A stretch of DNA of 10,040 nt from a virus, in UHGV virus genome UHGV-0351092; one strand, written 5' to 3'. Made by a program: the position numbers and the translations under genes. This document shows positions 5,284-7,080 of the stretch, piece after piece. Every line of letters begins with the position of its first letter. Positions within the stretch are counted from its first letter, which is position 1. The notes beneath the pieces are model-generated. The model had not been told where the DNA came from, did not search any database, and saw only the letters and a list, made by a program, of their open reading frames with translations.

Positions 5284-5669
5284 CCTCACCTGCTACACAG
5301 TGAGAATTTATGAAGTTAATAACAATATGATTTTAAATATATTTTTAAGTACTCACTTTTTAATCCTTATATATACGCAAAAGTGAGGTAAATAGTTAAG
5401 TTTTAGTTAATATCTTGCATGGTGTGTTTTTTAACCTACCTGTTATTTTTATTACCTCATTTCTATTAACTCACCATTCCTCACTTTTGTTCCTCACTTT
5501 TTATTATTCTTGTTCTGCTCCTCAGTCGTTTTCTTTATTGTTGTAATCTGTTGTTTTGCAATGTGTTTTTAACTCCTCACTTTTTGACCTATATACAGGT
5601 GAGAAAGTGAGGAAAACAGGGATGATTTTTAAATATTCCCTGCCCCCTCACTTTTACGCCTCACTTTTT
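5284..5669. repeat. putative replication origin: CCTCACTTTT iteron array in both orientations with an AT-rich spacer, directly 3' of the helicase gene
   Basis: Direct CCTCACTTT(T) copies at 5479-5488, 5492-5502, 5575-5585, 5646-5655 and 5659-5668, with two pairs on 13-bp spacing. Degenerate copies at 5284-5290, 5351-5361, 5455-5464 and 5470-5475. Inverted AAAGTGAGG copies at 5379-5388 and 5604-5612, plus GTGAG at 5300-5304. AT-rich stretch at ~5310-5460. The last iteron overlaps the helicase stop codon (5668-5670). Confidence 0.65.
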
Positions 5670-7080
5670 ACAGTGGGCGCACATCATCACCGTCAATAGC
5701 GATTACGCCGTCACCTTCCAGCTTGTACAGCCAGCGCCGGAAGTTTTTCATCTCATACCCCAGCTTTTTCATGTCATCGCGCAACAACGGAATAGTGCAT
5801 TTATCTCCGCGTTGCGTGCGTGAACGGATACAGCCCCATAGTGCGGCGTGATTCTCCGTCTTGTTCCCGGCTTCCTCGATGCGATCCAGTTCAACTGGCG
5901 GACGGGGCTTATCCTCCAGCACCAACGACGTGATTAACTCCCCGCCTTCATCCTTGAAAAGCTCAACCTCGCGCAAATCGCAAGCCATTTCTTTCAATTC
6001 CTCCGCATCCTTCATCTTGGTACATGCGATAACCAGGGCTTCACTGCCTGCACCTTCACGGCGTATCCGGTACTCTGCATCCAGTGCTGCACGAAACGCA
6101 CTGGAACCGCGCGCACCCTTTGTTTCGTCCTTGCCGGAATGGTGAATTACCAGCACTGTAGCGCCTGTACGCCGTTTCAGTTCGTCACATCCATGGACAA
6201 ATGCCCCCATATCCCGCGCATCATTTTCATCGCTGCCACCAAAGCAACGCGCCAGAGTATCCAGAATAATCATGCGTACAGGTTTACCCGTTTCCTGCTC
6301 AACCTGTCGGGCAGCAATAACCATTTCATCAACATCACTCGGTGCGGCCGGAAAAATTGGACGATTTACCAGGTACAGATTTTTCACCTGCTCACTGTTC
6401 ACCAGTTCCCATGCCTTGATACGACGAGGAACACCGATCCCGCCCTCACCAACGACATACATAACCGCACCATGTACAACCCGGCGACCTCCCCACGGGA
6501 TACCGGTAGCAACATGACATGCCCACGAACACGCAAGGAACGACTTATAAGAACCGCTCGCACCGTATGTGCTACATAGCGAATTAGCCGGAATCACGCC
6601 CTTAACTACATAGCTAAGCTGTGAATCATATCCTTCCGATCCAATGCTCATTGGTAGTGTGGTTTTTCGCTGGCTGTATTGCTCGTCAGTAAGCATTTCT
6701 TCGTGCTCTGCCTGTTCGCGGATTCGTTGCAGGTAATCGCGCCAGTTCTCCGGCTCCCGGTCGGTGATGCCTTTGTATAATTTCGCCTCCTGTACGCCAG
6801 CCAGCGCCAGTTTTTCAGCGATAGCATTGATCTGGATTGGTTCGATCTCCCCCGCGAGATAGACACGCGCAAAGCGGCGTTCATCGTCGACAATGCGGAT
6901 ATTCACCAGGTCTGCCAGTTGCTTTGGCCCCAGGTAAACAGGTGGTACGTTATCGCCGTGTTTTCGTCCTTCGCTTTCAATCCAGTGTTGAGCATGGGAG
7001 TAAGCGTCCGTCCCGGCAAAAATGATTACCTCGGTGAATTTATCCTTCGGCTGATATTTTAAATTCGGTGCGTTTTTCAC
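5668..7080 (-). CDS. replication protein: RepA/DnaB-like (RecA-fold, AAA_25-type) helicase with an N-terminal domain of unknown function
   Basis: ORF-track 470 aa. GTG start at 7080-7078 preceded by GGGAGGT with a 5-nt spacer. P-loop-like YGASGSYKSF, Walker B-like RMIILDTL, and VLVIHHSGKD typical of RepA-type helicases. Start overlaps the upstream stop as GTGA; iterons lie immediately downstream. Confidence 0.8.
   Translation of the reverse strand: MKNAPNLKYQPKDKFTEVIIFAGTDAYSHAQHWIESEGRKHGDNVPPVYLGPKQLADLVNIRIVDDERRFARVYLAGEIEPIQINAIAEKLALAGVQEAKLYKGITDREPENWRDYLQRIREQAEHEEMLTDEQYSQRKTTLPMSIGSEGYDSQLSYVVKGVIPANSLCSTYGASGSYKSFLACSWACHVATGIPWGGRRVVHGAVMYVVGEGGIGVPRRIKAWELVNSEQVKNLYLVNRPIFPAAPSDVDEMVIAARQVEQETGKPVRMIILDTLARCFGGSDENDARDMGAFVHGCDELKRRTGATVLVIHHSGKDETKGARGSSAFRAALDAEYRIRREGAGSEALVIACTKMKDAEELKEMACDLREVELFKDEGGELITSLVLEDKPRPPVELDRIEEAGNKTENHAALWGCIRSRTQRGDKCTIPLLRDDMKKLGYEMKNFRRWLYKLEGDGVIAIDGDDVRPL

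Follow-up and report, generated by a model that had tools for sequence, protein, structure and literature searches.

A probable satellite initiator-helicase of Escherichia coli with an aromatic P-loop residue and a candidate iteron origin directly downstream

Identification of a probable Rep protein

The window considered here, the whole 10,040-nucleotide stretch analysed from the viral genome UHGV-0351092, carries on its minus strand a gene, rep, whose 470-residue product is most likely the Rep protein of an Escherichia coli phage satellite of the phage-inducible chromosomal island (PICI) type, acting as both self-loading initiator and replicative helicase and built from three modules. It is described as an initiator as well as a helicase because of its C-terminal winged helix and the iteron origin that lies directly downstream. 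An earlier note on this sequence, made without database searches, had proposed a replication helicase with an atypical P-loop; that much is borne out by the results below, but the winged helix and the origin had both been missed. The rather vague labels available for such proteins ('AAA family ATPase', 'DNA primase', 'helicase RepA family protein') can now give way to that of a three-module initiator-helicase with a mapped candidate origin. The gene and the parts of its product are as follows.

5668-7080, minus strand: rep gene, 470-residue initiator-helicase, stop codon at 5668-5670 (open reading frame list, Pfam AAA_25, annotated copy, AlphaFold2 model)
6745-7080, minus strand: N-terminal domain, residues 1-112, four-stranded α/β and Toprim-like (predicted model)
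6631-6744, minus strand: linker, residues 113-150, a long helix (114-136) and then a low-confidence stretch (AlphaFold2 model)
5905-6630, minus strand: RecA-fold ATPase/helicase core, residues 151-392 (Foldseek match to 1g8y, RepA alignment, conserved motifs)
6541-6564, minus strand: deviant Walker A motif GASGSYKS, G173-A-S-G-S-Y178-K179-S180 (motif positions, clade-wide residue counts)
5671-5904, minus strand: C-terminal domain, residues 393-470, proposed iteron reader (predicted local distance difference test score, pLDDT, of about 90; covariation with iterons)
5743-5745, minus strand: codon of Asn446, within K445-N446-F-R-R-W450 (covariation with base four of the GTGxGG iteron)

Translation begins at a GTG overlapping the TGA of the open reading frame (ORF) upstream (aaGTGAaaa), with GGAGG some 10 nt before it, and a RefSeq copy 99.8% identical to the protein has the same ends and bears the last of the three labels just cited. 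The Pfam family AAA_25 (PF13481) matches residues 150-319 only, with an E-value of 3.8e-44 and a score of 151.1 bits against a cutoff of 27. RSF1010 RepA was the sole match when the whole protein was searched by sequence against solved structures, at an E-value (0.034) too weak to stand alone. Comparison of folds is more telling: the AlphaFold2 model, of mean pLDDT 92.3, divides into N-terminal domain (1-112), linker (113-150), core (approximately 151-392) and C-terminal domain (393-470), and Foldseek matched it to RecA-fold ATPases in the PDB, the top target TM-score, 0.72 (E 5.6e-11), belonging again to RSF1010 RepA (1g8y_A). Twinkle and T7 gp4 aligned across 430-446 columns, that is, over the whole architecture. 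Confidence in the model falls to pLDDT values of 57-74 at residues 121-140, helicase relatives align only from about residue 128-145 onward, and the linker is, as judged from these sequences, a recombination boundary between N-terminal modules and motors. The gene was matched in 750 of 5426 complete E. coli genomes, so that this type of island must be considered common.

Covariation of the C-terminal domain with the iterons

In the model the C-terminal domain comprises three helices (409-423, 430-439 and 447-456) followed by a β hairpin (460-463/466-469), an arrangement resembling a winged helix. Its sequence profile gave only non-significant matches to winged helix-turn-helix domains of solved structures, those of regulators of the CRP/FNR type, which is consistent with such a fold. 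Immediately beyond the rep stop codon, in the AT-rich spacer that separates rep from a ProQ/FinO-family gene, lies the proposed origin.

5284-5666, no strand assigned: proposed replication origin, with ten AAGTGAGG-type iterons in the 465-bp spacer 5203-5667
5381-5388 and 5605-5612, plus strand: exact AAGTGAGG iterons
5479-5486, 5492-5499, 5575-5582, 5646-5653 and 5659-5666, minus strand: exact AAGTGAGG iterons
5284-5291, 5351-5358 and 5455-5462, minus strand: AAGTGAGG iterons with one mismatch
5328-5404 and 5552-5628: two units of 77 nt that each contain an inverted pair of iterons
5300-5360, no strand assigned: AT-richest stretch of the origin (GC content 15-18%), flanked by iterons, candidate melting site (composition profile)

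All seven exact copies of AAGTGAGG in the window fall inside this spacer, along with three having a single mismatch, and both orientations are represented. Over the window as a whole there are 18 matches with at most one mismatch, compared to an expectation of 7.0 ± 2.9, and none of 200 shuffled sequences reached 18. The shorter string TGAGG occurs ten times in the 450 nt after the rep stop codon against a background of 0.8.

The link between domain and repeats was assessed by comparison of 80 related Enterobacterales loci, together with sister E. coli loci, of which 77 had enough downstream sequence. The residue occupying the position of Asn446, where the third helix begins within the pattern K-x-F-x-R-W-L, was set against the commonest TGxGG pentamer in the 450 nt following the stop codon, with the following result.

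Asn at 446: iteron base A, 23 of 23 loci
His at 446: iteron base G, 9 of 9 loci
Ser at 446: iteron base C, 7 of 7 loci
Lys at 446: iteron base G, 37 of 38 loci

Thus the identity of residue 446 predicts the fourth iteron base in 76 of the 77 loci, and the arrangement of an iteron origin 3' of rep recurs in the same proportion (76/77), the pentamers mostly numbering 5-11 per 450 nt against backgrounds of 0.1-2.5. The residue has changed state at least eight times on a neighbour-joining tree of the ATPase core. One such switch lies between the window, with Asn and GTGAGG, and an E. coli allele with His and GTGGGG whose last 110 residues are 96% identical. The covariation suggests that the winged helix reads the iterons, with Asn446, at the start of the recognition helix, recognising their fourth base; residues 393-470 would accordingly bind the GTGAGG iterons of the AT-rich origin beginning directly behind the stop codon. 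The correspondence of Asn, His, Lys and Ser with A, G, G and C, respectively, amounts to a testable recognition code that could predict replicon compatibility among satellites.

One sister island (L003) carries a superfamily 3 (SF3)-type gene in place of the RepA type. It has the same N-terminal domain as rep and its own GGTAGA-type repeats downstream, and alongside it lies a fossil RepA C-terminus with GTGGGG iterons. The iterons therefore follow the motor and C-terminal module, not the N-terminal domain, and the latter was rejected as a candidate origin reader, since it occurs on an SF3 protein whose origin has these unrelated repeats. Positions 7737-8469 and 8466-8751 of that locus represent the scar of a replication-module replacement, with two origins side by side. 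Separately, a Xenorhabdus locus with Asn at the key position (L007, 4030-4479) has 11 TGAGG and 8 TGGGG pentamers in the 450 nt after its stop codon, which may reflect two iteron sets or a second origin.

The P-loop and the catalytic residues

The Walker A motif occupies residues 173-180 and departs from the canonical GxxxxGK[ST] in having Tyr178 in place of the usual Gly, Lys179 and Ser180 being present. There is no other GK[ST] motif anywhere in the 470 residues. The register is fixed by a residue alignment with RSF1010 RepA, in which Tyr178 falls on the canonical Gly and Lys179 on the Walker A Lys, so that a standard P-loop in a different register, an observation that the earlier note had named as refuting its reading, was not found. 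The remaining motifs are in place, including the two that had been reported as intact, Walker B (IILD, residues 271-274, with Asp274) and the His motif (HHSGK, 313-317, with His313 and His314). The catalytic Glu212 lies in GEGG (211-214), Arg324 in GARGSS (322-327) and a DEND sequence at 284-287. The Walker B Asp, catalytic Glu, His sensor and Arg finger all align to RepA and are kept in relatives.

Homologues were sought among 1.84 billion cluster representatives; 31,102 passed an E-value threshold of 1e-3 and 3,752 one of 1e-30. All 120 close homologues (at least 62% identity) read G[AP]SGSYKS, the Tyr being invariant. For a wider census, 146 of the top 150 representatives of 50%-identity clusters were aligned, 142 of which cover the P-loop: the residue preceding the Lys is Tyr in 47, Gly in 46, Phe in 34, Leu in 9, Cys in 3, Ala in 2 and Arg in 1. 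Tyr or Phe is thus found in 81 of the 142 and Gly is absent from 96, while the Lys never varies. The motifs LARCFGGxDEN and HHSGKDxxKGARGSS are likewise conserved among the 146, as are Lys179, Ser180, Glu212, Asp274, His313/314 and Arg324, implying selection on catalysis. Among the members with Tyr or Phe are fusions in which the partner is an intact zinc ribbon plus Toprim_3, Prim-Pol plus PriCT_2, or the N-terminal domain of DnaB. In two phages, Salmonella phage S102 (a Jerseyvirus) and Escherichia phage K1H (a Kagunavirus), the replicative helicase-primase has GESGTYKS as its P-loop. In Mycobacteriophage PG1 gp59 it is GPPGIGKS. The deviation noted earlier is therefore real, though a hallmark of the large, evidently functional subfamily to which the protein belongs: judged by its distribution, the Tyr P-loop is conserved under selection, and neither a sign of decay nor a peculiarity of rep. 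A large helicase clade would thus tolerate, and indeed conserve, a bulky aromatic side chain at the most conserved Gly of the P-loop.

As every other catalytic residue is conserved, the Tyr is presumed to be compatible with catalysis, and the RepA-family core (residues 151-392) would be expected to form a ring at the melted AT-rich centre of the origin and to unwind DNA with ATP. Its polarity is predicted to be 5' to 3', by analogy with RSF1010 RepA and the T7 gp4 family. For the Tyr/Phe members in general activity is something we infer, since a literature search for the motif strings SGSYKS, SGSFKS, GSYKSF and GSFKSF found nothing. The contrary view would be that the change from Gly to Tyr abolished hydrolysis, leaving a pseudo-ATPase that serves solely as an origin-binding initiator and recruits host DnaB. 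To our knowledge Gly before the Walker A Lys is almost universal among P-loop NTPases, and the literature yielded no assay of any protein of the Tyr/Phe clade. Nevertheless we regard a pseudo-ATPase as very unlikely, given the retention of the catalytic residues across the 146 relatives and the fusion of Tyr/Phe members to intact primases. Moreover, in the stretches of Jerseyvirus and Kagunavirus that were examined no replicative helicase is annotated other than a protein with the Tyr P-loop, and MCM helicases function with Ala or Ser at the corresponding position.

The N-terminal domain and its DUF4222 partner

The earlier note found no recognisable domain in the N-terminal 150 or so residues. 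This stands as far as Pfam and NCBIfam are concerned, neither giving a match to residues 1-149, but not for PHROG, in which residues 3-136 match phrog_864, a family labelled 'DNA primase' (E 5.9e-8), nor for the predicted fold, which looks Toprim-like, resembling the Toprim domains of DnaG and T7 primase. E. coli DnaG and several topoisomerases appear among the lower-ranked matches for the domain. Since a clean profile-profile comparison with Toprim_3 gave an E-value of 0.13, homology to Toprim is not proven by sequence; a first such run was discarded as trivial, having aligned only the shared linker. A fold search of viral models (BFVD) returned one uncharacterised match (E 9.5e-4) and was uninformative, while searching with the domain alone recovered only enterobacterial fragments of at least 49% identity and no distant relatives.

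Inspection of the sites at which Toprim domains carry their catalytic residues is more revealing. The Toprim Glu position is occupied by Ala22, which is nearly invariant, the domain reading IIFAGTDA where active relatives have IAEGYAT. At the DxD position it has G77-E78-I-E80 (LAGEIE) against AGDND, with DND or DHD, in active relatives, and among homologues residue 78 varies between E, D, S, N, H, V and L and residue 80 between E, K, A, S, R and T. Residues 1-150 contain neither a Zn_Ribbon_Prim match nor a Cys cluster, and no RNA-polymerase subdomain is present; a zinc ribbon is found in several relatives (P0121, P0123, P0125 and L043), and the closest relatives retain the full zinc ribbon plus Toprim_3. 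With catalytic Glu, DxD motif and zinc ribbon all missing, the domain is probably a catalytically dead Toprim remnant. We suggest that it is a degenerate Toprim left over from a primase-helicase ancestor resembling T7 gp4 and that it probably synthesises no primers. The earlier remark that the window holds no separate primase was sound, none of the 20 ORFs scanned containing a primase domain, and priming would be left to host DnaG or to a helper phage.

The domain is not confined to helicases of the present type. Its residues 1-142 are 87% identical to the N-terminus of the SF3-type (D5_N/DUF5906/Pox_D5) protein that occupies the same position in sister island L003, the identity breaking down from about residue 125 (and ending at approximately 125-142), and it shares 50% identity with the N-terminal part of the published EcCICFT073 Pri-Rep, also SF3-type. 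It is found, too, on DUF927-type proteins. By these comparisons it is exchangeable between superfamily 4 (SF4) and SF3 motors. What seems to travel with it is the gene immediately upstream.

7077-7367, minus strand: DUF4222 gene, 96 residues, translationally coupled to rep (Pfam DUF4222, E 1.4e-19; 4-nt overlap with the rep start)

Such a gene sits immediately upstream in each of the six helicase loci tested that bear this N-terminal domain (L001, L002, L004, L005, L029 and the window as self-match) and in both SF3-type loci having it (L003, 10531-10821; L090, 19946-20245), but in none of 72 loci with other N-termini. The 4-nt overlap of its stop codon with the next start is shared by the window with the annotated loci L001-L005 and L090. 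Another DUF4222 gene adjoins the excisionase of a CFT073 lambdoid prophage (L089, 10192-10431).

This strict co-occurrence, taken with the Toprim-like fold, the phrog_864 match, the presence of invariant acidic residues and the frequent naming of such relatives as 'DNA primase' in databases, could be read to mean that a minimal but active primase resides in the N-terminal domain, with or without the help of DUF4222, the whole being a true primase-helicase. We consider this no likelier than a pseudo-ATPase. The near-invariant Ala22 and the variability of residues 78 and 80 speak against it, as does the absence of both zinc ribbon and RNA-polymerase subdomain, and DUF4222 for its part has only one Cys and matches no solved structure.

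Comparison with known replication systems

The general resemblance of the window Rep to Rep and Pri-Rep proteins of PICIs and of Staphylococcus aureus pathogenicity islands (SaPIs), such as SaPI1 Rep1, SaPI5 PriRep5 and EcCICFT073 Pri-Rep, is close: a helicase with a C-terminal winged helix encoded in an integrase-bearing satellite island. In published PICI and SaPI origins an AT-rich centre has short iterons on either side and the whole lies just 3' of the gene; the window has the same arrangement. With EcCICFT073 Pri-Rep, in particular, it shares the N-terminal domain and the upstream DUF4222 gene. The motors differ, however. In the structurally studied SaPI Reps the motor is of the AAA+ type, SF3 or SF6, and in EcCICFT073 Pri-Rep it is SF3 (D5_N/DUF5906), whereas that of the window Rep is a RecA-fold SF4/RepA motor (AAA_25), for which the opposite translocation polarity, 5' to 3', would be expected by analogy. 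Autonomous rep-ori replication and helper-phage induction have been shown only for EcCICFT073, which carries the SF3-type allele.

RSF1010 RepA (PDB codes 1g8y, 1nlf and 1olo) belongs to the same Pfam family and has the same fold, with its Walker A Lys, Walker B, His sensor and arginine finger (SRGSS/ARGSS) aligning to those of the window Rep. The plasmid protein is a bare 279-residue core that needs a separate initiator, RepC, and a separate primase, RepB'; the window Rep, in contrast, adds a Toprim-like N-terminal domain and a C-terminal DNA-reading domain and has Tyr at the P-loop Gly. The order of Toprim-like domain, linker helix and SF4 helicase is that of T7 gp4 and metazoan Twinkle, to which the whole chain aligns. 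The primase part of metazoan Twinkle has lost its catalytic residues, and that of the window Rep appears similarly stripped. Unlike these two proteins, the window Rep lacks a zinc-binding domain and has an additional predicted origin-binding winged helix, and its N-terminal domain is found on SF3 motors also. Finally, the α protein of phage P4, another E. coli satellite, is likewise a single polypeptide in which a primase-type N-terminus and a helicase are joined to an origin-binding domain at the C-terminus. P4 α has an active primase, with the motif EGYATA, and an SF3 helicase; the window Rep reads FAGTDA and has an SF4 motor.

These comparisons make it most likely that rep is a further member of an already known kind of satellite Rep gene, the find being real but mostly ordinary. 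A bolder proposal, which we think unlikely without dismissing it as readily as the other alternatives, is that the Tyr/Phe Walker A marks a mechanistically distinct and unstudied branch of RecA-fold helicases, in which the aromatic residue may bind or gate nucleotide, and that the dead Toprim and DUF4222 together form a portable adaptor by which SF4 and SF3 motors capture a host or helper primase. In that case the 'Pri' half of enterobacterial PICI Pri-Rep proteins would not be a primase at all. Even otherwise, the 'primase' label on PICI Pri-Rep proteins, including the EcCICFT073 protein used experimentally, probably denotes a dead Toprim remnant. Scarcely credible, finally, is some other RecA-fold ATPase with no part in replication, be it a RadA/Sak4-like recombinase, a KaiC-like protein or a defence ATPase: NCBIfam RadA models match weakly (E 1.7e-5, far below cutoff) and RAD51 and KaiC chains are among the Foldseek matches, but the top target TM-score is that of a hexameric helicase, RepA, homologues exist as fusions to primases or to the N-terminal domain of DnaB, the adjacent iteron origin covaries with the C-terminal domain, and a defence role was dropped when a PADLOC search of the helicase gave no match.

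Four observations weigh against the satellite initiator-helicase favoured here. The window itself, which ends before the integrase, contains neither integrase nor att site. In the N-terminal domain several acidic and basic residues (E17, D43, D65, R68, R72 and E111) are invariant. The ATPase activity is assumed, no biochemistry having been found in the literature for any member with a Tyr/Phe P-loop. Lastly, recombination of the C-terminal domain and origin as a single block could yield part of the covariation, although this would still imply a functional link.

Island context and neighbouring genes

Sister copies of rep (L001 and L002) reside in islands of approximately 11 kb beside tRNA-Gly that do carry an integrase and are transcribed in one direction. 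Their gene order is integrase, AlpA-like helix-turn-helix protein, AntA, YlcI, Icd-like, small ORFs, DUF4222, rep, origin, ProQ/FinO, PerC and DUF2213, matching that of EcCICFT073. Other alleles of the helicase occur in islands with either a lambda-type capsid and Nu1 or an HK97-type capsid, protease and portal.

In the window, the origin is followed by genes for a ProQ/FinO-family RNA chaperone (4660-5202, minus strand) and a PerC-family regulator (4376-4663, minus strand). PerC homologues in PICIs can turn the LEE (locus of enterocyte effacement) virulence island on or off (PMC11773190). Further along are two minus-strand ORFs, 3383-3970 and 2647-3318, that resemble a longer phage protein split in two: 2647-3318 and 3383-3970 match positions 115-328 and 409-545, respectively, of the 545 in phrog_6216. 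The former is a DUF2213 protein with a weak match to head-maturation proteases. A 194-residue ORF at what is presumed to be the equivalent position in the sister islands is named 'NUDIX hydrolase' in RefSeq, yet has no Pfam match. The E. coli genomes that match the window best share it only from about 1616-1622 onward; positions 1-1620 have a GC content of 35-38% and no convincing ORF, and position 1620 or thereabouts is the probable place of the island end or of an att site.

On the other side of rep, the ORF at 7923-9428 (minus strand, 501 residues) has no family match and is probably not a gene. It overlaps the region that, in the sister islands, is annotated with Icd-like remnants and, on the opposite strand, with a YlcI/YnfO gene. 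Beyond it, an ORF for an AntA/AntB-like antirepressor (9421-9999, minus strand) matches, in its C-terminal part, PDC-S22, a candidate defence family of PADLOC (E 2.2e-9).

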